Source of the DNA: a virus
Virus genome (UHGV): UHGV-0142836
Length of the DNA stretch: 10,854 nt
Strand: one strand, 5' to 3'
Shown piece by piece: positions 2,837 through 10,824 of this stretch (its first letter is position 1; the number at the start of each line of letters is the position of its first letter). The notes under the pieces were generated by a model. The model did no database searches and was not told the DNA's origin. It saw nothing but the letters and a program-made list of their open reading frames with translations. The position numbers and the translations under genes are program-made.

Positions 2837-3115
2837 ATGAATAAACACACTCTAACCCGTATTTCAGAGGAAGCTTTTAACGAGCTTAACAGAATTAAAC
2901 GAGCGACTAACCTGCCTCATCAGACTATTATGCAGCTTGCAATTGCTAAAGAGGTCACTGAGTCGGATTTACTGAAATATCCAGTTTCTAAAGGTCGCAG
3001 ACACATCAGAATTACTAAGAACGCTCTGGCTACTCTGAAGGAACTGAACAACTTTAAAATTGATATTGCCCGACTATTGAGCATCAAGATTCACAAGCTA
3101 TCGATGGGGGTTTAA
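2837..3115 (+). CDS. Putative small DNA-binding protein, 92 aa, possibly ribbon-helix-helix
   Basis: GGAGG at 2823-2827 sits 9 nt before ATG 2837. The track ORF (2738-3115) extends upstream inside the previous gene, so the internal ATG is preferred. N-terminus 'HTLTRISEEAFNELNRIKRATNLPHQTIMQLAIAKE' fits a strand-helix-turn-helix RHH pattern (inference only). Confidence 0.45.
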   Translation: MNKHTLTRISEEAFNELNRIKRATNLPHQTIMQLAIAKEVTESDLLKYPVSKGRRHIRITKNALATLKELNNFKIDIARLLSIKIHKLSMGV

Positions 3116-3318
3116 TGCTATGCATTACCTTTGAATACCACACAGATAAAATGATTCGCTACATCTCCGACCTCCTGATTAAAGGAAACGGATTCGGTGA
3201 CATCCATAACTCAAAAGATATTTTCATTAAAGCCATTGGCCCAAATGAAACACTGAAAACAGCAGTTAAACCGGAATGGTTTGAACGTCATAAGATTGAA
3301 TTAGGTTATTGGGGGTGA
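3115..3318 (+). CDS. Hypothetical protein, 67 aa
   Basis: Start overlaps the previous stop (TAATG at 3113-3117), indicating translational coupling. No recognisable motif. Confidence 0.45.
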   Translation: MLCITFEYHTDKMIRYISDLLIKGNGFGDIHNSKDIFIKAIGPNETLKTAVKPEWFERHKIELGYWG

Positions 3319-3327
3319 GGAGGTTTT

Positions 3328-3615
3328 ATGAAACCTTGGCATGAAGATGTTAGAAGATATTTTGCAGAACACCTTATCTATGATGAATCCAGTGATTCCC
3401 TGTGCTGGTCTGATGGAGAGTCAGTCACGATAAATACCGACGACTACGGCAACAAAACATTTAATATAGGTCGATACACATTCTATGTGAAATATGTTGT
3501 CTGGTTCCTTTATCATGGCTATCAATCCAATAAGCAAATTATCCATCGAAATGGTAACAGAGCCGATACCAGACCAAAAAACCTTATGCAAGTCCGAGAC
3601 TTTAAGAGAAATTAG
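3328..3615 (+). CDS. Small HNH-family endonuclease, 95 aa
   Basis: GAGGAGG immediately upstream of ATG 3328. C-terminal 'YVVWFLYHGYQSNKQIIHRNGNRADTRPKNLMQV' matches the phage HNH pattern (HRlvw...H-x-dGn-x-dNr-x-NL). Confidence 0.55.
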   Translation: MKPWHEDVRRYFAEHLIYDESSDSLCWSDGESVTINTDDYGNKTFNIGRYTFYVKYVVWFLYHGYQSNKQIIHRNGNRADTRPKNLMQVRDFKRN

Positions 3616-3621
3616 AAAAAC

Positions 3622-3750
3622 AGCTTCTCAGACGCTCTCAATCGCATTCTAACGCAAAAAACTACCTTGTTTTAGGGTGGGTAATACCACTGTACAGGCT
3701 ACCCCTGAAAAAGACTGTTTAGCTCGTTACAGAGCGATTGAGGAGGTCTG
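3622..3750. repeat. R2 element copy 2: arms at 3631-3650 and 3717-3750 around a ~66-bp spacer containing hairpin GGGTA...TACCC and palindrome CTGTACAG
   Basis: Arms near-identical to copy 1 while the spacer is unrelated; the element ends 5 nt before the AAGGAG Shine-Dalgarno of the gene at 3772. Confidence 0.6.
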
Positions 3751-3771
3751 GTAAAAAGGAGATTTTAAGAA

Positions 3772-4095
3772 ATGAACAATTACGAATTACAGATTTTCGT
3801 TGATGCCGACACTGCTATGATGATTCAGGCTTTCAGTGATTCCGGTGTATCAATTGACTTTGATAAATTACTAAAGCTGATGGCTGATAATGCAGAAAAC
3901 ATCTCTGACTTTATTCAGTCGGTGGAGTTTAACGAGCCTCGAATGATGCTACCAATTACAGACTCAAACATGAAAAGATTGGTTATTGAGCAAACGAACA
4001 AATACAGTATTTCCCCAGAGCAATTTTTGAAAGGTGCTGTGACAATCCTGTACAGCGATAATATTTTGGTGACGGATTCTGTGAGGATTCACTAA
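3772..4095 (+). CDS. Hypothetical protein, 107 aa
   Basis: AAGGAG sits 10 nt upstream of ATG 3772; intact ORF; no recognisable motif. Confidence 0.55.
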   Translation: MNNYELQIFVDADTAMMIQAFSDSGVSIDFDKLLKLMADNAENISDFIQSVEFNEPRMMLPITDSNMKRLVIEQTNKYSISPEQFLKGAVTILYSDNILVTDSVRIH

Positions 4096-4172
4096 TGACG
4101 TTAATTGTATTATGGACGCTGCTAGGGCTATTTGTTGGTTGCTGGATGGGTAACACAGTAAATAAGAATTGA
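4095..4172 (+). CDS. Candidate 25-aa hydrophobic micropeptide (MTLIVLWTLLGLFVGCWMGNTVNKN)
   Basis: ATG overlaps the upstream stop (TAATG at 4093-4097), the same coupling geometry as at 3113-3117; single hydrophobic helix. Below the ORF-track size cutoff, hand-translated. Confidence 0.25.
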   Translation: MTLIVLWTLLGLFVGCWMGNTVNKN

Positions 4173-4196
4173 TGTTACCAATCTGTTAAAAAGCTG

Positions 4197-4225
4197 TTGA
4201 CAAATAACATTGAGCATGACATAAT
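4197..4225 (+). promoter_or_regulatory. Sigma70-like promoter P2: TTGACA, 17-bp spacer, CATAAT
   Basis: TTGACA at 4197-4202 and CATAAT at 4220-4225, followed by 'ttgtatatat' exactly as in P1. Confidence 0.4.
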
Positions 4226-4232
4226 TGTATAT

Positions 4233-4416
4233 ATAGGGAGAGCAATTCTCTCTTATTTTCTTTCAATAATCCGATGGATGGATATTCTGAGTTGGAAAGG
4301 TGCAATGCTTTTCGTCATGGCCTTTCAGTTTAGTCTGAGAGGCTATCTCAAAAAGTGCTTAATCATTCATTGAACCCTTTACAGCTTTGCCCTAACTCAT
4401 GATTAGGGCTTTCTTT
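4233..4416 (+). ncRNA. Candidate small RNA or structured leader transcribed from P2, ending at the first terminator
   Basis: About 185 nt between the predicted start site and the terminator at 4389-4416; no ORF with a ribosome-binding site; hairpin GAGAG-caatt-CTCTC directly after the predicted start. Confidence 0.25.
4389..4416 (+). terminator. Intrinsic terminator T1
   Basis: Perfect 7-bp stem GCCCTAA / TTAGGGC with a 7-nt loop, followed by TTTCTTT. Confidence 0.5.
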
Positions 4417-4485
4417 AAGAGTTTTTAAACAGAGCTTTTAAAGAAAGTTTTTCCTGAAACTTCGTTAACGTTAAAGCAAACCTTC

Positions 4486-4519
4486 AAAGCCCTTCACAGA
4501 TTATGTTTAGGGCTTTTTT
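4486..4519 (+). terminator. Intrinsic terminator T2
   Basis: Stem 'aaagccct' / 'agggcttt' with a 15-nt loop, followed by a T-run; its 3' half 'tttagggcttt' repeats T1. Confidence 0.45.
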
Positions 4520-4629
4520 CAGCTTTTAAAAAGCATACTTGGCAAACCGCCTTTTAAGCCTCTTCTAAGTTCGTAGGATGTCAGGTGTGCTTTTTAAAAA
4601 CTGAATATTACTTAGAAGAGGAAAATGAA

Positions 4630-5337
4630 ATGGAAAATCTATATATTAGCGGTAGAAAGGTTGATAGCTTCGGTGACTGGTCGCCACAGACTGAACATCC
4701 AGCTATCACTATTCAGCGTCAAGAGCATGACAAGCGCATTGAGCTTGAGCAATCGCTAAAGATGTCACCAAAAACAACCATCTTTGTGTCTCCTGAACCT
4801 CAAGAGATGCCTGATGTTTGCAAGGGTGAAGCATTACTTGAGCTTGAAAAGAAATATTACCCACTGCTGAAAGCACAAAGAATTAAACTTGATGACGCTT
4901 ACAGCAAAGTTACCCTGATGCAATCAGCTATTGAGCCATCAGAATTTGAGATTCAGGATGAATTGTCACAGAAACCATTTGTCTATTACCAATACGAAGA
5001 CAATGATGGTTTTGGTACTTTTCCTGAGAATATCCCAGACGTGATTAATAATCTTCCTGATGGATATCGAATTGTGAAAATGATTGGAGCTTCAAGAGGT
5101 GATGGTCAGTTTATTTACATGACCAATAAGAGCGATGAAGAACTCCGTGAAATTGCCAGACAGAACATCTTAGCATCACGTAACAAGCAACTTGAAAATG
5201 TTAAGTTGTGTCTCTTAAGAGAGCTTCAGGCTATGAAAGACCTTATTTCTGCATATGAAACGCAGAAGAAGATTGCTATGCAGGCTGATATTGAGCAGTT
5301 AGTGAAGATTTCTCAGAAGTATAGCAAGGTACTTTAA
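4630..5337 (+). CDS. Hypothetical protein, 235 aa, with a predicted coiled-coil C-terminus
   Basis: The six-frame ORF begins at GTG 4585; the in-frame ATG at 4630 has a GAGGA Shine-Dalgarno about 8 nt upstream. No recognisable domain. Confidence 0.55.
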   Translation: MENLYISGRKVDSFGDWSPQTEHPAITIQRQEHDKRIELEQSLKMSPKTTIFVSPEPQEMPDVCKGEALLELEKKYYPLLKAQRIKLDDAYSKVTLMQSAIEPSEFEIQDELSQKPFVYYQYEDNDGFGTFPENIPDVINNLPDGYRIVKMIGASRGDGQFIYMTNKSDEELREIARQNILASRNKQLENVKLCLLRELQAMKDLISAYETQKKIAMQADIEQLVKISQKYSKVL

Positions 5338-5361
5338 CTAATAATTAAAAGGAGGTGATGA

Positions 5362-5577
5362 ATGATTGATTTGCAACAGCGTTATGAAACTATTAAGTCG
5401 GCTTGCAAAAACTTAAAGTTACAAACTAAGCCAGCCTTAAGAATTAAAACCAAACGTCAAGTTATCACCTCACACAAACCAAAAACACGCAAGATTCCAA
5501 AGTGGTGTATCGACCGTATCCCTTCTGATGCCCAAATCATAGGTGAAACGGAATTACATTATCTTGTCAGACATTAA
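5362..5577 (+). CDS. Hypothetical basic protein, 71 aa
   Basis: Strong Shine-Dalgarno AAGGAGGTGA before ATG 5362; Lys/Arg-rich; terminator follows. Confidence 0.5.
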   Translation: MIDLQQRYETIKSACKNLKLQTKPALRIKTKRQVITSHKPKTRKIPKWCIDRIPSDAQIIGETELHYLVRH

Positions 5578-5624
5578 AAAGATTGGTTGGGTGTATGAGA
5601 TAGGTTCTATCGAATCTATAACAC

Positions 5625-5668
5625 GGGGAGAGATTATCGATATTATTCGGTAGTTTCTCCCTTTTTTG
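5625..5668 (+). terminator. Intrinsic terminator after the 71-aa gene
   Basis: Stem GGGAGA (5626-5631) / TCTCCC (5656-5661), extendable with G-U pairs, followed by TTTTTT at 5662-5667. Confidence 0.5.
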
Positions 5669-5684
5669 TATATGAGATAGTCTT

Positions 5685-5769
5685 CTATCGAATCCTATGT
5701 GCTACGTGAAATCTTCTGAACAGATATACCCACCAAAAATTATTTTTTACGTAGCTCACGCTTAACAGA
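5685..5769 (+). repeat. R1 element copy a: conserved stem-loop (GCTACGTGAA 5701-5710 pairing with TTTACGTAGC 5745-5754) plus box 'tcacgcttaacaga', 16 nt before ATG 5785
   Basis: About 85% identical over ~85 bp to 7957-8034, with the same spacing to the downstream start codon. Confidence 0.65.
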
Positions 5770-5784
5770 GGTGAAATATGAACA

Positions 5785-7875
5785 ATGGCACAATTTAAAG
5801 TTGATAGTTTTATCGTTGAGCTAGGCTTCAGCGAGAGCGTTATTAAGGGCTTGCAAAGAGTTGAAAAGGCAGCTTTGCAGTCAGCACAAAGAATTGAAAA
5901 GAACCTAAATAAAGGTTTTAGGATTAATACAAAGCAGCTTGATAGTAATTTAACGGCTTCTTTAGGGCAGCTTGAAAGAAAGTTTAATAAGACTTTTGAT
6001 AAGATTGAACAGAGAGCAAGAAATACTAAAGCTTTCCAGTTTACAACCAGATTTAATGACACTGTTAATCCTCCAAAACAATCAAGGCAACCACGAATTA
6101 GCGGAAACAGAGCAATCACAGCAGCGCATAGCGTGAATATGTCTAAGCTTGGTGATATTAATCCGCTGATGGCTAAAATGTTTAAAGCACAGTATTACAG
6201 CTTAAGCGGTAAGGCTGGTAATATTGGAAGTGAAAAGTTTAACGCTGAACTTGCAAAATTAAATCAATCTCTTCGTGAAACGTTGAATAAACTCAGGTCA
6301 CAGACAAAGACCACCAGCAAAAACAATCACAGTGAAAATGCTTCGAATGGTCTGGATGTATTAGCTACGAGTGCAATCAAAGCAGGTACAGCCATTTATA
6401 GTTTTCAGACAGCCTTAGAAGCTTACAAGAAGGTTATGGAGGTTGGTCTGAAAAAAGAAGCATCACAACGAGCGGCACAATTCGTTTTAGGTGATGAAGG
6501 TGCTAAACGAGCTACAGAATTTGTGAAGAATCTTGCTAATAATACAGGTGTTGACCAGATTGAGACATTAAGCAGCTTTGCTAAGTTTTCCGCTGGTGCT
6601 GGTGATATGAATGCAGACCAGAAAGAATCCTTATTTAGTAATGTGATTGGTACATCCCGACTAATGGGTTTAAGCACTGATGAGATTAACGGGATTCTAA
6701 AAGCTTTCGAGCAGATGGCTTCTAAAGGGAAGATTCAGGCTGAAGAGCTACGTGGTCAATTAGGGGACAGAATGGCAGGTGCTTTTCAGTTATTTGCCAG
6801 AAGCCTTGGGATGACTACAGAGCAATTAGATGCAGCTATGAAGAACGGTAAAGTTCTTTCTAAAGATGTTCTTCCTAAAGTATCCGCTGAAATGGGAAGG
6901 ATGATTGATAAAGCTGGTGGATGGGAAAAGATTATTAACTCTACTCAGACGCAGTTAGGCCGCCTTTCTAATTCATGGAATAATAATCTGGCCTTAATGT
7001 TCGATGGTTCACAGGAAGGTTTAACAGACTTTACAAGGTCACTGACTAATTTACTTAATTCGCTAGGTGGGCAATCTAAAAATCTTGGTGAACATTTTGG
7101 CGACTTGATGAAAAGTATGTCAAACGGTATTGATGATTTAACCACGATTAGCTACCGAGTGCAGGGATTCTTTGACAGAGTGACCCTTGCTTACAGAGAA
7201 TTAAATGACACTCAAAAAGCTGTAGCTGATGGTATCGCAAATGGCCTGTTAAGTGCATTAAAGGGACTTGCTGGTATTGTTGCTGTAAGGTCTGGTATTG
7301 GTGCTGTAGGTGGCATCTGGAACTTAATTAGGGCTATTTCCACGCTTGGAAATGTAGCAAATACAGCAGCGGGAAGAATCAATTCACGTTCTGGTACTGG
7401 TAGTGTTGAAGGTGGTAAAGGAAAATTATCTGTAGCTGATGCAATTACCAAAGTAATGATTGTTGGTATGGCAACTGATGTGATTAACTCCATTGTTAAA
7501 CCGTTCTATGAACGTCAGATGAGTAAGTCAGATAATCCAATTGACAAAGTTGTAAGGTCAAAGGTGGAACCCACAGACCAAGCATTGACTGGTGACATGA
7601 ACTCTTTAGCTGCTGTTTTATGGGCTATGGTTCAGGGCAAATCAAAGGATGTTCCACAGCTTTCACCTGAAGCATTAAATAATCTGAAAGGTCGAGTGGA
7701 AACATTCACACAAGATTTAAAGGTTATCAAGCCGTCAGTAAACATTCAGCCTCAGACAATCAATATCACAACTCAGACGGTACTTGATGGAAAGGTTATT
7801 GATGAAAGAACCACATCGCATATTAATCGTATGCAGGAAGATACCTTGATTAGCTCAGCTTACCCAGAGGAATAA
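5785..7875 (+). CDS. Protein with a phage tail tape-measure-like domain, 696 aa
   Basis: The segment 'FEQMASKGKIQAEELRGQLGDRMAGAFQLFARSLGMTTEQLDAAMKNGKVLSKDVLPKV' resembles the conserved tape-measure domain of lambda-like phages; Gly/Ala-rich hydrophobic stretch 'GLLSALKGLAGIVAVRSGIGAVGG'. Unusually short for a tape measure and lacking neighbouring tail genes. Confidence 0.5.
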   Translation: MAQFKVDSFIVELGFSESVIKGLQRVEKAALQSAQRIEKNLNKGFRINTKQLDSNLTASLGQLERKFNKTFDKIEQRARNTKAFQFTTRFNDTVNPPKQSRQPRISGNRAITAAHSVNMSKLGDINPLMAKMFKAQYYSLSGKAGNIGSEKFNAELAKLNQSLRETLNKLRSQTKTTSKNNHSENASNGLDVLATSAIKAGTAIYSFQTALEAYKKVMEVGLKKEASQRAAQFVLGDEGAKRATEFVKNLANNTGVDQIETLSSFAKFSAGAGDMNADQKESLFSNVIGTSRLMGLSTDEINGILKAFEQMASKGKIQAEELRGQLGDRMAGAFQLFARSLGMTTEQLDAAMKNGKVLSKDVLPKVSAEMGRMIDKAGGWEKIINSTQTQLGRLSNSWNNNLALMFDGSQEGLTDFTRSLTNLLNSLGGQSKNLGEHFGDLMKSMSNGIDDLTTISYRVQGFFDRVTLAYRELNDTQKAVADGIANGLLSALKGLAGIVAVRSGIGAVGGIWNLIRAISTLGNVANTAAGRINSRSGTGSVEGGKGKLSVADAITKVMIVGMATDVINSIVKPFYERQMSKSDNPIDKVVRSKVEPTDQALTGDMNSLAAVLWAMVQGKSKDVPQLSPEALNNLKGRVETFTQDLKVIKPSVNIQPQTINITTQTVLDGKVIDERTTSHINRMQEDTLISSAYPEE

Positions 7876-7899
7876 ACAATGTTAGAACTACTAATATTT

Positions 7900-7917
7900 A
7901 TTGCCACACATGGCAAT
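7900..7917. repeat. Perfect palindrome ATTGCCA-caca-TGGCAAT just downstream of the 696-aa gene
   Basis: 7-bp arms with a 4-nt spacer; possible weak terminator or operator. No clear T-tract. Confidence 0.3.
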
Positions 7918-7956
7918 CTATTAATCTTTATCTAGTATGACGATTCAACTATGAAT

Positions 7957-8034
7957 AGTCGAATGCTACGTGATTTCTTCTGAACAGATACCAACATCAA
8001 AAATTAGATTTCACGTAGCTCACGCTTAACAGAA
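7957..8034 (+). repeat. R1 element copy b: stem GCTACGTGA (7965-7973) / TCACGTAGC (8011-8019), box 'tcacgcttaacaga' (8020-8033), 15 nt before ATG 8049
   Basis: Perfect 9-bp stem with a 37-nt loop whose sequence ('tcttctgaacagata...caaaaatta') is conserved with copy a. Confidence 0.65.
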
Positions 8035-8048
8035 TAGGAATAACAACA

Positions 8049-8819
8049 ATGTTTGACACAAAGCAAATTAGATACTCAGGTAAAGATGGTATCTATTTTC
8101 ACCTTAGAGATAATGTAGAATCTTTTCTTGCCTTAACAGCTACTGAACAGATGGACTATGACAGCCCTATGATGGTGACAACTCAGGCTATGCAATCAGG
8201 GCAAACCGTCACAGATAATGTTCAGAGAGCACCTAAGACCATCTCTATTAGCGGTGTTGTAGTGGTTGATTCGACGGGTTCAATTCTATTAACCAGACAG
8301 GGGCAACTTGTAGAGACCTTTATTTCTACGGTTGAACAATGGCGAGACCAGAAGCAAATCATCACTATTGTTTGTAGAGATGGAATAGCTATCACTGATA
8401 GTATCATTACTCAGTTTAAAGCGAGTAAAGAGCATACCATTGCTAATGGTCTTCGTATTCAGATGACCTTCCAAGGTGTAGAATTTCGTTCAATCGTAGG
8501 TCAAACTGATATTTCGGCTGCAACTGGAAAAGCCGCGACTACGAATGATGGTGGTGCTACCAGTAAAAAGAATACAGGGAATACTACGACAAGTTTAGGT
8601 AATGGTATGTTGCTGTGTCAGGAGTTATATAATCGCTCTACGAGTGAACTCACTAATGAGCAACTTCAAGCCCGTATCAATTGTGGTAGAAGTGTCAAAG
8701 TTGAGAACGGAAAAAGCACCTTCTCAGATGCCGCTAATGAGCAGGCTTCAAAAGTGCTTAAGTCGGGTAATGCTTTACGGAAATTTAGTGTGAATCCGAA
8801 TAAGAAGGGCACTTATTGA
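8049..8819 (+). CDS. Hypothetical protein, 256 aa, with a Thr/Gly/Ser-rich central region
   Basis: Intact ORF immediately after R1b; no recognisable motif. A distal-tail or other structural role is conceivable only from its position after the tape-measure-like gene. Confidence 0.55.
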
Positions 8820-8828
8820 GACATAAAA

Positions 8829-8846
8829 AGGGGCTTCATAGCCCCT
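8829..8846. terminator. Bidirectional terminator between the convergent 256-aa gene and the recombinase gene
   Basis: Perfect stem AGGGGC / GCCCCT with a 6-nt loop, flanked by AAAAA upstream (a T-run on the minus strand, so it reads as a terminator for the recombinase transcript). Confidence 0.5.
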
Positions 8847-8851
8847 GAAAA

Positions 8852-10372
8852 TTACAGTTGATAAGCGTCAATATCCAGTAGCTCTTTATCAGCAATTTCA
8901 AAGATTGGTGACCCATCATTTAGCGGTAACGGGTTTGTAGGTATGGTGATTTTAGTGTCGTTCTGTAGCGTTACAGTTACCGAATCCTTACCCAATGTAA
9001 GCCCTTTTAGATGTTTGGACAAAATCAACTGACACTCGACACGACCTGCTTTAGTTGTCAGGTCAATATCTTTAAGCTGGGGTAGTTCCTTATCAGTGAG
9101 TGAAGCCTTACGCCTCATGTTATCAATCGTGGTCTGTAGCTCTGTGCGCTTCTGGTTAAGTCCCTTCACCTGTGTTTTCAACTCTGTAATATCATCCATT
9201 TCAAGAAGTAGGGCGGTAGCTTTCTTGATTCTAGCTGTGACAATTTCAACCTCATGCTGTAACGCTGCAATCTTCCTCTCTGATTCTCCATCATTCCCCA
9301 CGTCAATCATCCCCAGAAAATTATCAATCATCCATCGGTCAAACGGTTTACGCTTCAACGGTGGAACATCACAGCGACCGTCAGGATTGTTATTGCACCT
9401 GTAAACTCCTGCATACTTATTCTTAGTCCCTGTAGGGTGAACACTAGCCCCACACTGACACCGGAATAATCCCTTGAAGATGTTAATCGTTAATGGGTTA
9501 TCACTTGCAGGTGTACGGCCTTTACGATTTTTATCGAGGATTTCTTGAGCTTTATTGAACGTTGCAGCATCTATAGCGGCTTCGTAGTAGTTCGGTATAG
9601 CGGGGCGGTCATTGCGCTGTGATGCTGGTAACGTGCCTATTGTTGTCTCCGACCTTAAGATGGTGCGTACAGAGTGGACACTAAACCCGTTAGCATCTTT
9701 ACGCCGTGAGAATGAACTAATGTTATTAGCCTGTAGGTGACGTGCAATGTTATGTAGACTTTCACCATCTAGCAGCAGTTTGAAAATCAGTCTTACAGTC
9801 TCAGCGTGTTCATTGACTTCAAAAGTCTCAGGGTCAATCCATCCGGGGACCATCTTTGTTAAACGTTGTTTACCAGCAAGGGCAAGTTTTGCACGTTGCC
9901 CCCATTTCTGAGAAACACGGAAAGACTTCTGTTTACTCTCCTGATGCGCTAGGTAGCTTTTAACCCGCTGAATGATTGAGATTCCTAAATCATCGGATAG
10001 AGCATCCCTTGTGTAGATTAGCCCATCCTGTAGAGTGTGAATCTCGATACCATGAGCAATAATGCGGTTCATCAAGGCTTCTGTTTCAAGGTGTTCTAAG
10101 CGGCCTATACGGTCGATACTCTCAACAAGCAAAATCGTACCTTTTGAAAACTCCCCAGACTCAATACGGGCTAACATGTCACCAAACTGACCAGTAAGGT
10201 GCTTACCTTTGTAACCGGATAGACCCTCATCACTGAAAGACGCTACTACTTGAGCATCGCTATTCTTCTTCAACCATTGCTTGAACAGGTCATTTTGTCG
10301 TCTGGTTGAATCTGCACCTTCAGCGCCTTGTATGGCTGAACTGTACCGAAGGTATGTAATTACGCTTCTCAT
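8852..10372 (-). CDS. Large serine recombinase (phage or element integrase), 506 aa
   Basis: N-terminal resolvase-type catalytic domain (YLRYSS...Q with the Ser nucleophile, DEGLSGYKG, IDRIGR); a Cys cluster (CQCGASVH...YRCNNNPDGRCD) consistent with a zinc ribbon; C-terminal coiled-coil segment. Confidence 0.9.
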   Translation of the reverse strand: MRSVITYLRYSSAIQGAEGADSTRRQNDLFKQWLKKNSDAQVVASFSDEGLSGYKGKHLTGQFGDMLARIESGEFSKGTILLVESIDRIGRLEHLETEALMNRIIAHGIEIHTLQDGLIYTRDALSDDLGISIIQRVKSYLAHQESKQKSFRVSQKWGQRAKLALAGKQRLTKMVPGWIDPETFEVNEHAETVRLIFKLLLDGESLHNIARHLQANNISSFSRRKDANGFSVHSVRTILRSETTIGTLPASQRNDRPAIPNYYEAAIDAATFNKAQEILDKNRKGRTPASDNPLTINIFKGLFRCQCGASVHPTGTKNKYAGVYRCNNNPDGRCDVPPLKRKPFDRWMIDNFLGMIDVGNDGESERKIAALQHEVEIVTARIKKATALLLEMDDITELKTQVKGLNQKRTELQTTIDNMRRKASLTDKELPQLKDIDLTTKAGRVECQLILSKHLKGLTLGKDSVTVTLQNDTKITIPTNPLPLNDGSPIFEIADKELLDIDAYQL

Positions 10373-10528
10373 GGTGATAAACTCTCATGCAATTGATTAT
10401 CATTTAAAGATAAGCTTATAACCGTTATGGCTAATGCTACAATGCCGAATAGCTACAATACAATGACCCTTGAATGAAGTCTATTCGGTTTTCTAAGAGA
10501 CCTGTTAAAAACAGGACAATATCAGGTG

Positions 10529-10554
10529 TAGTTGGGCTTGTTCCAACCCCTATG
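10529..10554. repeat. att-like repeat part B (right copy), containing hairpin GTTGG-gcttgtt-CCAAC
   Basis: 'tagttgggcttgttccaacccctat' matches 2093-2118 with 2 mismatches; lies about 155 bp upstream of the recombinase start. Confidence 0.4.
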
Positions 10555-10824
10555 ACTATGCAATTTTCCAAGTATCTAAGCAGTTTTACACAGATTCTAT
10601 GCAGTATCGGTATAGTCCCTTTTTATCATAACTTATTGAAATATATAAAGAATATGTGAAGTCCCTTTTCAGGGTAAACTGTATCGTGTTAGTCGTCCCT
10701 CTCCAGACTCCTAGAAAAGTGCTATATACAGGAGTATATAACGCTATATAGATGTTTGGTCACCATACGTTACAGTTGCAAGAGATAACAATCAGCTATG
10801 TGAAAGTTAGGAGGTGATGGTTAT

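Follow-up and report, generated by a model that had tools for sequence, protein, structure and literature searches.

The stretch of DNA considered here is UHGV virus genome UHGV-0142836, which was analysed over its whole length of 10,854 nucleotides (the window). It carries a gene for a tape measure protein (TMP) of 696 amino acids (aa), followed by a gene for a 256-aa tail tube initiator and, on the opposite strand, a gene for a large serine recombinase. The window represents the excised circular form of an integrative element whose integrated relatives form islands of ~11 kb in the chromosomes of Escherichia coli, and the two tail genes have their counterparts in virulent Felix-O1-like phages. 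A preliminary description of this DNA had noted a tape-measure-like open reading frame (ORF) of 696 aa, at coordinates that proved exact, and a single 256-aa gene between it and the recombinase, with which the ORF map agrees. The features on which the argument is built are as follows:

5785-7875, + strand: TMP, 696 aa, homologue of Felixounavirus gp17 (profiles, PDB 9ndy_F)
8049-8819, + strand: tail tube initiator with Dit_like fold, 256 aa, homologue of Felixounavirus gp18 (profiles, PDB 9ndy_A)
8852-10372, - strand: large serine recombinase (integrase), 506 aa, with Resolvase, Recombinase and Zn_ribbon_recom domains
10461-10473, + strand: attP core CAATGACCCTTGA; the same 13 bp terminate attL and attR in the integrated copies L001 and L002

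The tape measure protein and the tube initiator

The 696-aa protein is recognised by Pfam TMP_3 (E = 7.4e-20, 71.9 bits against a curated cut-off of 41), by NCBIfam tape_meas_nterm (TIGR02675; 1.2e-15, 57.6 bits, cut-off 21.35) and by PHROG 4036, tail length tape measure protein (5.4e-98). It also matches chain 9ndy_F, the gp17 of phage Bas63 in its solved structure, at 1.4e-72, with residues 1-51 and 204-696 aligning and the last 25-30 residues included. Judged by these profile and structure-database searches, the protein is a genuine TMP, beyond a chance motif, and the motif does not belong to a different family; the earlier thought of a repurposed domain finds no support.

Searches of 50,697 phage records by tblastn returned full-length matches to the TMP at ~30% identity. 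The 25 best-ranked records are without exception Felix-O1-like myoviruses of Escherichia or Salmonella (genus Felixounavirus), which are virulent and have genomes of ~86 kb. Along the protein, identity to the TMP of phage garuso amounts to 86% over residues 1-29, about 59% over residues 291-377 (the TMP_3 core) and 48% over the last 29 residues, and to 15-30% over the remaining body. In the Bas63 structure, the last 25 residues of the TMP contact the hub and the spike (puncturing) protein gp21 at the hub tip (PMC12609058). The conserved C-terminus of the island TMP corresponds to this segment seated in the hub, and the docking surfaces have been retained.

The TMPs of the islands mostly measure 682-710 aa, with one variant of 725 aa, compared to 735 aa in garuso, 742 aa in Bas63 and matches spanning about 734-750 codons in other Felixounavirus records. 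The TMP of the window is about 40-50 residues (about 5-6%) below the phage TMPs, the body itself being about 40-46 residues shorter in this variant, and across the family the proteins are mostly about 25-60 residues shorter, with most of the length difference residing in the N-terminal third. If the protein acts as a ruler, the textbook value of about 1.5 Å per residue predicts that 40-50 fewer residues would shorten the tail by only about 4-7 nm. The preliminary description, which took 696 aa to specify a short tail, overstated this difference from the 735-742-aa phage proteins.

The 256-aa protein, for which a Dit-like nature had been raised as a question, is indeed Dit-like: it matches Pfam Dit_like (2.4e-17, 63.7 bits, cut-off 24.2), PHROG 3721 (5.6e-129) and, over residues 4-256, chain 9ndy_A, the 'Tube initiator protein (gp018)' of Bas63 (3.9e-107). 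In Bas63, gp18 forms the hexameric adaptor between the three-fold hub and the six-fold tube (PMC12609058). The island protein is 67% identical to garuso_119 and 67-73% identical to the phage copies, and at the DNA level its gene is 74-76% identical to the gene directly 3' of the TMP gene in Felix-O1-like phages. Within the phage collection its relatives are confined to Ounavirinae-type phages, with 253 records at 60-80% identity and none above 73%; more distant relatives occur in Erwinia and Pectobacterium phages. The tube-like N-terminal domain and the extreme C-terminus are retained, while part of the C-terminal extension varies.

The two proteins are full-length in all full-length island copies compared (TMP 11 of 11, initiator 10 of 10), gene fragments at contig ends having been excluded from this comparison. 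Pairwise against the window, and with the phage copy included, the TMP gene has a ratio of non-synonymous to synonymous substitution rates (dN/dS) of 0.15-0.32 and the initiator gene one of 0.13-0.29. The full-length copies and the dN/dS of 0.13-0.32 show both genes to be functional and under purifying selection.

For a comparison with a complete phage, the whole garuso genome was rebuilt (85,798 bp) and compared with every island ORF and with the island DNA (tblastn, blastn). TMP and tube initiator are the sole genes common to the window and garuso. No sheath, tube, chaperone, capsid, portal or terminase gene was found in the element with Pfam, PHROGs and NCBIfam or by tblastn against garuso. 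The earlier statement that no other tail genes are visible therefore holds for tube, chaperone and capsid, but not for the 256-aa neighbour, which is itself a tail or baseplate gene. Compared with the tail core of the Felixounavirus Bas63 (PDB 9NDY, PMC12609058), the island encodes direct homologues of gp17 and gp18 in the same gene order, and the TMP N-terminus, the TMP_3 core, the hub-binding C-terminus, the tube-like domain of the initiator and its C-terminal end are all conserved. However, the island TMP has a diverged body and is shorter, and the genetic setting differs: in phages of the Bas63 type the two genes abut, follow the chaperone genes and form part of a full tail operon, whereas in the island each has its own regulatory cassette and the pair is preceded by a terminator. 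The regulatory features around the pair are:

5625-5662, + strand: strong intrinsic-terminator-like hairpin with a 16-bp stem and T run, separating the TMP cassette from the operon before it
5700-5787, + strand: regulatory cassette copy 1, 88 nt, ending at the TMP ATG (direct repeat family D1)
7964-8051, + strand: regulatory cassette copy 2, 88 nt, ending at the tube-initiator ATG (direct repeat family D1)
8829-8846, - strand: terminator-like hairpin between the converging initiator and recombinase genes

The two cassette copies are 82% identical, and each carries the inverted repeat GCTACGTGAAATCT...ACGTAGC together with the word TTAACAG. The 14-nt inverted repeat brackets a weak promoter-like stretch, and partial copies of the cassette are present at 60-82 and 289-314. 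In garuso, the chaperone genes lie directly 5' of the TMP gene, which has one boundary base in common with the gene after it. Since the phage genes for TMP and initiator abut without a spacer, the cassettes are regarded as island-specific. The inverted repeat is absent from the garuso genome; the cassette was accordingly rejected as a phage regulatory site, and the regulator acting on the repeat is probably an island or host product. The cassette precedes the TMP gene in many, though not all, family variants, while the hairpin directly 5' of the TMP gene is kept in the variants. Where the cassette is lacking, the TMP ATG lies only about 35 nt past the T run of the terminator, which suggests that expression of the TMP in these variants needs read-through or antitermination.

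The word TTAACAG occurs at 17 sites in the window compared to 2.6 expected, a number reached in none of 200 shuffles. Examples are the sites at 350, 440, 770, 985, 1021, 2246, 5762 and 8026, and the word often stands 20-40 nt 5' of start codons. A non-coding region of 1.65 kb in garuso (48952-50603, L022) is dense in [CT]TAACA[AG], with 15 occurrences per 500 nt on one strand. This likeness is suggestive of a DNA-binding factor common to island and phage, as might arise from mimicry of an origin or of a regulator.

A circular integrative element and its relatives

Once a 55-bp overlap is removed, a 10,909-bp metagenome scaffold has exactly the sequence of the window in rotated form. Two scaffolds of this length, from at least two samples, carry the 55-bp terminal direct overlap that is the signature of a circular assembly, the exact TMP sequence of the window is present on several 10,909-bp metagenome scaffolds, and a Logan contig from another run crosses the window junction as well. 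GenBank entries for the proteins of the element bear the name 'MAG TPA: ... [Caudoviricetes sp.]'. Relative to the islands at tonB the window is circularly permuted: positions 3591-10473 correspond to the right end of the island and positions 10461-10747 to its left end, with a 13-bp overlap, so that right and left ends are fused across the core CAATGACCCTTGA as in an attP junction. Because it is both an exact rotation of a circular scaffold and contains the attP junction, the window is taken to be the complete excised circular form.

The recombinase is matched by Pfam Resolvase (2.6e-16), Recombinase (8.8e-17) and Zn_ribbon_recom (5.4e-06) and by PHROG 95, integrase (4.7e-79), and is 94-95% identical to the tonB-adjacent recombinase of E. 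coli islands. The element integrates and excises by means of this large serine recombinase at the 13-bp core, which overlaps the tonB start codon. Strains A0 34/86 and O55:H7 TB182A carry an island of ~11.2 kb between yciI and tonB, with ordinary host genes on either side. The sequence beyond the window, to which the preliminary description had pointed as a place for further tail genes, holds no tail operon, since the window is the whole circular element and the integrated copies are flanked by the host. The GC content is 39.4% for the element, 38.9% for garuso and 49% for the host flanks. Among the ORFs of the element, Pfam and NCBIfam detected no conjugation or mobilisation gene, and no known non-coding RNA or tRNA was found in the window.

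The core holds the tonB start codon and the first three codons (L001 23170-23182 and 12001-12013), and the attR sequence ...CAATGACCCTTGATTTACCTCGC encodes MTLDLPR, so that the tonB ORF stays intact upon integration. Island DNA replaces everything upstream of the ATG, and tonB is therefore severed from its native promoter region in carriers; insertion at the start codon may change the regulation of iron uptake in these strains.

Of 5,426 complete E. coli genomes, 570 contain related DNA at 80-95% identity and 495 (~9%, about 1 in 11) the TMP-initiator pair, which always lies in the chromosome. A plasmid origin was rejected, as no match was found in 72,556 plasmids. The integrated relatives are islands of ~11 kb with host-gene flanks at yciI/tonB, within yecE or beside wrbA. 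There are at least three integration modules, each with a different large serine recombinase: at the tonB 5' end (506 aa), inside yecE, a DUF72 gene (507 aa, about 34% identical to the recombinase of the window), and beside wrbA-yccJ (547 aa). The loci behind these modules are L028 6957-9505 and L003 18895-19371 and 6671-7018.

The gene order of the islands is constant and consists of a first operon gene, three to four small ORFs including an HNH gene, the genes for the 107-aa, ~235-aa and ~70-aa proteins, TMP and initiator, and the recombinase on the opposite strand. Nearly every gene exists as several diverged, mosaic alleles, with identities of 48-95% for the TMP, 59-95% for the initiator and 26-86% for the 235-aa protein. 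The left end of the island holds variable cargo, namely a small serine recombinase/invertase, a Dam methyltransferase, an HNH-AP2 endonuclease or a protein of PHROG 13369 (L003 7112-9401, L004 9543-10211, L001 12469-13044, L023 186-1744). The small recombinase is oppositely oriented in L001 and L002.

Homologues of the island-specific proteins are found in E. coli, Shigella, E. albertii, E. fergusonii, E. marmotae, Salmonella and Citrobacter, and, the minor Escherichia species excepted, these taxa recur among the hosts of the matching phages. A DNA-pattern scan of one genome per species recovered E. albertii alone, because a single-sequence query catches close relatives only.

Further signs of exchange with Felix-O1-like phages lie outside the tail pair. 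Over 91 aa, the HNH-AP2 cargo gene has 43% identity to an HNH gene of garuso, and a non-coding stretch of 39 nt (L010 1770-1808, L002 11833-11867) is 97% identical to garuso 5651-5689, between garuso_12 and garuso_13; this stretch is absent from the variant represented by the window.

Interpretation and comparison with known systems

The element is a discrete integrative unit with att sites, an integrase and an incomplete set of virion genes, as is general for satellites, and the excised circular form is provided by the circular scaffolds and the attP junction, subject to a caveat on tandem dimers given below. With moderate confidence, we favour the view that it is a PLE-like satellite of Felix-O1-like phages, which would use its own TMP and initiator to build chimeric tails. 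The evidence thus favours the satellite with its own tape measure that was among the first proposals for this DNA, although helper identity and dependence, induction, replication, packaging, incorporation into tails and interference with the phage are matters that we infer. In keeping with a satellite are the gene resembling a replication initiator in the operon of one variant, the mosaic alleles and variable left-end cargo, a GC content close to that of the phage, the signs of exchange and the agreement between carrier taxa and phage hosts.

According to this proposal, infection by a Felix-O1-like phage would cause the element to excise and to replicate, probably from a replicon module of its own, and TMP and initiator would then be expressed from their private regulatory cassettes. 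Both proteins would dock on the phage hub, through the conserved C-terminus of the TMP and the tube-like domain of the initiator, and the docked pair would nucleate tails made of phage tube, sheath, baseplate and fibres, yielding chimeric tails that are roughly 4-7 nm shorter. Lacking capsid and terminase genes, the element would depend on the packaging machinery of the phage; a full-size head might take up a concatemer of about eight copies, given that 85.8 kb divided by 10.85 kb is 7.9. PICMIs, the minimalist satellites of virulent vibriophages, are packaged as concatemers and to our knowledge carry no capsid-remodelling genes. Parasitism of the tail core would lower the phage yield, and the element would in this way protect the host population.

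The precedent for such a strategy is found in the PLEs of Vibrio cholerae, which encode their own TMP and tail chaperone and, in some variants, a baseplate hub, and replace those of phage ICP1 in PLE virions (Mathur et al., Nature 2026, PMC12987554). Chimeric tails of this kind are shorter by about 10 nm, and without the PLE tmp gene transduction falls by 96-99.9%; putative tmp genes were also noted in some cf-PICIs and in elements resembling PLEs from other Vibrio species (PMC12987554). The element resembles the PLEs in being a small chromosomal island with a terminal large serine recombinase (a similarity at the domain level) whose related phage is a virulent myovirus. It also shares with them a diverged TMP of its own together with a protein of the tail nucleation complex, the lack of sheath, tube and fibre genes, a TMP shorter than that of the phage and modular, mosaic alleles. 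For the PLE proteins, replacement of the phage's own in chimeric tails has been demonstrated; for the island proteins it is predicted.

In the Pfam and PHROG searches nothing beyond shared domain families connects the two, and they differ in several respects. PLEs combine the TMP with a chaperone, for which no counterpart was found here, and the second protein is a gp18-like tube initiator here but the hub protein BhuB in PLEs, with an identity to the phage counterpart of 67-73% for the initiator compared to 41% for BhuB. Counterparts of RepA_N, the TcaP-like capsid scaffold and NixI are not recognised in this element, and neither RepA_N nor a scaffold gave a hit in Pfam or PHROGs among its ORFs. 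Furthermore, the element measures about 11 kb and occurs in Escherichia, Shigella, Salmonella and Citrobacter. As no chaperone was found and no RepA_N or capsid scaffold is seen, we treat the element as PLE-like in its working but as a separate family.

Other satellites are less similar. The putative E. coli satellites of the Inny/Muut type, 224 of which have been described (Barth et al., 2023 preprint, PMC10055350), are likewise att-flanked islands with a putative TMP, a baseplate component and few tail genes, some of them with a serine recombinase. However, these elements encode a major capsid protein, a decoration protein and RepA_N, none of which was found here with Pfam, PHROGs and NCBIfam. 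Most of them use a tyrosine integrase beside tRNA genes, and they have been linked with another group of phages. PICMIs, PICIs, cf-PICIs and P4-like elements are comparable as small integrative islands without a full set of virion genes, but their hallmarks (alpA, pri-rep, terS, sid/psu/delta/alpha and capsid genes) are all missing from the element in Pfam, PHROG and NCBIfam searches, and putative tmp genes have been reported for some cf-PICIs only, not for PICMIs, classical PICIs or P4-like elements (PMC12987554). In the literature, no paper was found that ties satellites to Felixounavirus or describes this island, although coverage was incomplete and this is absence of evidence only.

While the concept of the chimeric tail has been known since the PLE work, the element looks like an undescribed, widespread and very compact family. 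More specifically, and tentatively, it may represent an abundant family of minimalist satellites of ~11 kb, present in ~9% of complete E. coli genomes, that hijack their helper solely by replacing TMP and initiator. The building of chimeric tails by a satellite has so far (2026) been shown only for the PLEs of V. cholerae. If an unrelated E. coli element used the same trick, the strategy would have evolved repeatedly and would not be a peculiarity of Vibrio PLEs, and a system amenable to genetics, whose helper virion is solved (Bas63, PDB 9NDY), would be at hand for asking how a satellite biases tail nucleation toward its own TMP, a question left open by the PLE study. Roughly one in eleven E. 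coli genomes would then parasitise or block phages of the Felix-O1-like group, which is widely used in typing, biocontrol and therapy of Salmonella and E. coli. Predictions of phage efficacy and host range would be affected, and the variable cargo of the element could be mobilised.

Several points weigh against the satellite proposal. Unlike in PLEs, no tail assembly chaperone was found by hhalign, BLASTP, Pfam or PHROG searches. No terminase small subunit, pac or cos mimic or capsid-size factor was recognised in the element, and blastn shows no packaging-region DNA common to island and garuso. The putative replication gene of the variant in the window is, as far as its sequence tells, an unannotatable ORFan, and the sharing of TTAACAG with the phage non-coding region is only suggestive. 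As regards the circle, a tandem integrated dimer could be the source of the circular assembly, and excision could occur spontaneously, without a phage. The element-length contigs L023, L024 and L026 end at or just past the island borders and are not circular; taking L023, L024 and L026-L028 together, all are linear contigs ending at or past these borders, and none of them provides an independent circle of another variant.

The main rival gives the same two proteins a different role, namely that the element is a mobile defence island which is not transduced by phage but spreads by other routes, and whose diverged TMP and initiator are dominant-negative decoys that join the tail nucleation complex of Felix-O1-like phages by way of their conserved ends and give rise to dead-end or defective tails. 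Homology to the phage proteins and conserved docking ends would fit this equally well, as would the lack of packaging, capsid and chaperone genes and the variable cargo at the left end, which resembles defence hotspots on mobile elements. The blocking of tail assembly is moreover a documented defence, represented by the Tai systems (PMC11364771) and by Rta of PLE11 (PMC12987554), whose genes likewise reside on mobile elements and target tail assembly of the invading phage. As described, however, these are small inhibitors and not homologues of tail parts, and are set apart on that description from the full-length structural homologues encoded here. A decoy would not need both proteins at full length with all interface regions under purifying selection, the circular form in several metagenomes suggests an amplified extrachromosomal stage, and one variant has a gene resembling a replication initiator. 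In the sole tested precedent, the PLEs, the satellite TMPs are functional parts of the tail. A search of the window with PADLOC-DB v2 gave no convincing model match, its sole hit being a marginal one of the 92-aa protein to the candidate PDC-S26 (0.0038). We therefore regard a pure defence island as unlikely, bearing in mind that it overlaps with the satellite proposal, since satellites also interfere with their helper.

It is more doubtful still that the element is some other integrative element, or one with an unknown helper such as an uncollected temperate phage, in which the captured pair is used otherwise. All its other genes are ORFans without a phage counterpart, the 235-aa protein bears the NCBI name 'transposase', though no family hit supports it, and the helper is a putative one. 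However, the phage collection shows relatives of the initiator in Ounavirinae-type phages only, and the ends of the TMP that are conserved are the ones in contact with phage parts. The GC content and several independent signs of exchange lead to this phage group as well, and no conjugation or mobilisation gene was detected. Finally, the decaying remnant of a prophage tail module that was initially considered is effectively excluded: just two tail genes beside a recombinase would be in keeping with it, but the related phages are virulent and without integrase, and the element forms a discrete unit whose att sites are precise and which is excised in circular form. Moreover, the same gene set recurs at each of the three sites of integration and in 9% of the E. 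coli genomes, the flanks are host and not phage genes, and the genes are intact in eleven full-length copies under purifying selection (dN/dS 0.13-0.32).

The remaining genes and repeats of the window

The part of the window before the TMP unit holds the following further features:

1491-1637, + strand: two 53-nt direct repeats (repeat family D4), candidate origin or operator
1759-1935, - strand: gene for a small hydrophobic protein, 58 aa (called in L017 and L018, annotated in L002, conserved in variants)
2205-2233, + strand: sigma-70-like promoter TTGACA-17-TAGGAT, 5' of the rightward operon (repeat family D7)
2284-2835, + strand: ORFan, 183 aa, first gene of the rightward operon, in the slot position
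2837-3115, + strand: 92-aa protein, possibly a small DNA-binding protein (weak sub-threshold hits; gene-called in L017)
3115-3318, + strand: ORFan, 67 aa, conserved in the family
3328-3615, + strand: stand-alone HNH endonuclease, 95 aa (Pfam HNH_3 1.8e-08, PHROG 99 1.5e-08)
3772-4095, + strand: ORFan, 107 aa (ORF call; profile and family comparison)
4630-5337, + strand: island-specific protein, 235 aa, with a predicted long helical hairpin and a small alpha/beta domain
5362-5577, + strand: ORFan, 71 aa, directly 5' of the TMP unit (ORF call)

After profile, exhaustive-sequence and fold searches, five of the ten genes have no functional assignment; besides the tail pair and the recombinase, the HNH endonuclease gene is the one recognisable gene. 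The 235-aa protein gave nothing in Pfam, PHROGs, NCBIfam or PADLOC and is absent from the 50,697 phage records; an exhaustive HMMER search of 1.84 billion proteins returned just 20 representatives, all of the island type. Its AlphaFold2 model, computed with an alignment, has a mean pLDDT of 78 and no Foldseek hit below E = 0.03 in PDB or BFVD. The designation 'transposase', which the NCBI pipeline assigns to this protein in many genomes, is not backed by any family or fold match and was set aside. Two candidates for a chaperone were rejected: the 235-aa protein, with an hhalign probability of 0.1% against the phage chaperone, and the 71-aa protein, which gave no BLASTP alignment to the 79-aa chaperone-extension protein of the phage. 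The sub-threshold hits of the 92-aa protein are to DndE (0.0021) and PDC-S26 (0.0038).

The first gene of the operon occupies a slot whose content is swappable, with a product of 183 aa in the window and of 247, 338 and 322 aa in L023, L027 and L024, respectively. The 183-aa protein has no hit in Pfam, PHROG, NCBIfam or PADLOC and one weak phage hit, and its homologues are all 'hypothetical' and domainless. The 322-aa protein of L024 (1980-2948) matches PHROG replication initiators (8.8e-11) and Pfam HTH_36 and is O-like or DnaD-like. From its position, the 183-aa gene may form a replicon module together with the upstream repeats. The two 53-nt repeats (1491-1543 and 1585-1637) are 96% identical, start 94 nt apart and each contain an internal palindrome, within a non-coding region of ~2 kb; shorter related copies are present at 8811-8830 and 10625-10650.

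The 58-aa gene has its own terminator-like hairpin (1745-1721), and its product is probably a single-pass membrane protein, for which a role of the toxin, exclusion or lysis type is conceivable. A copy related to the sigma-70-like promoter of the rightward operon is located at about 903-931.

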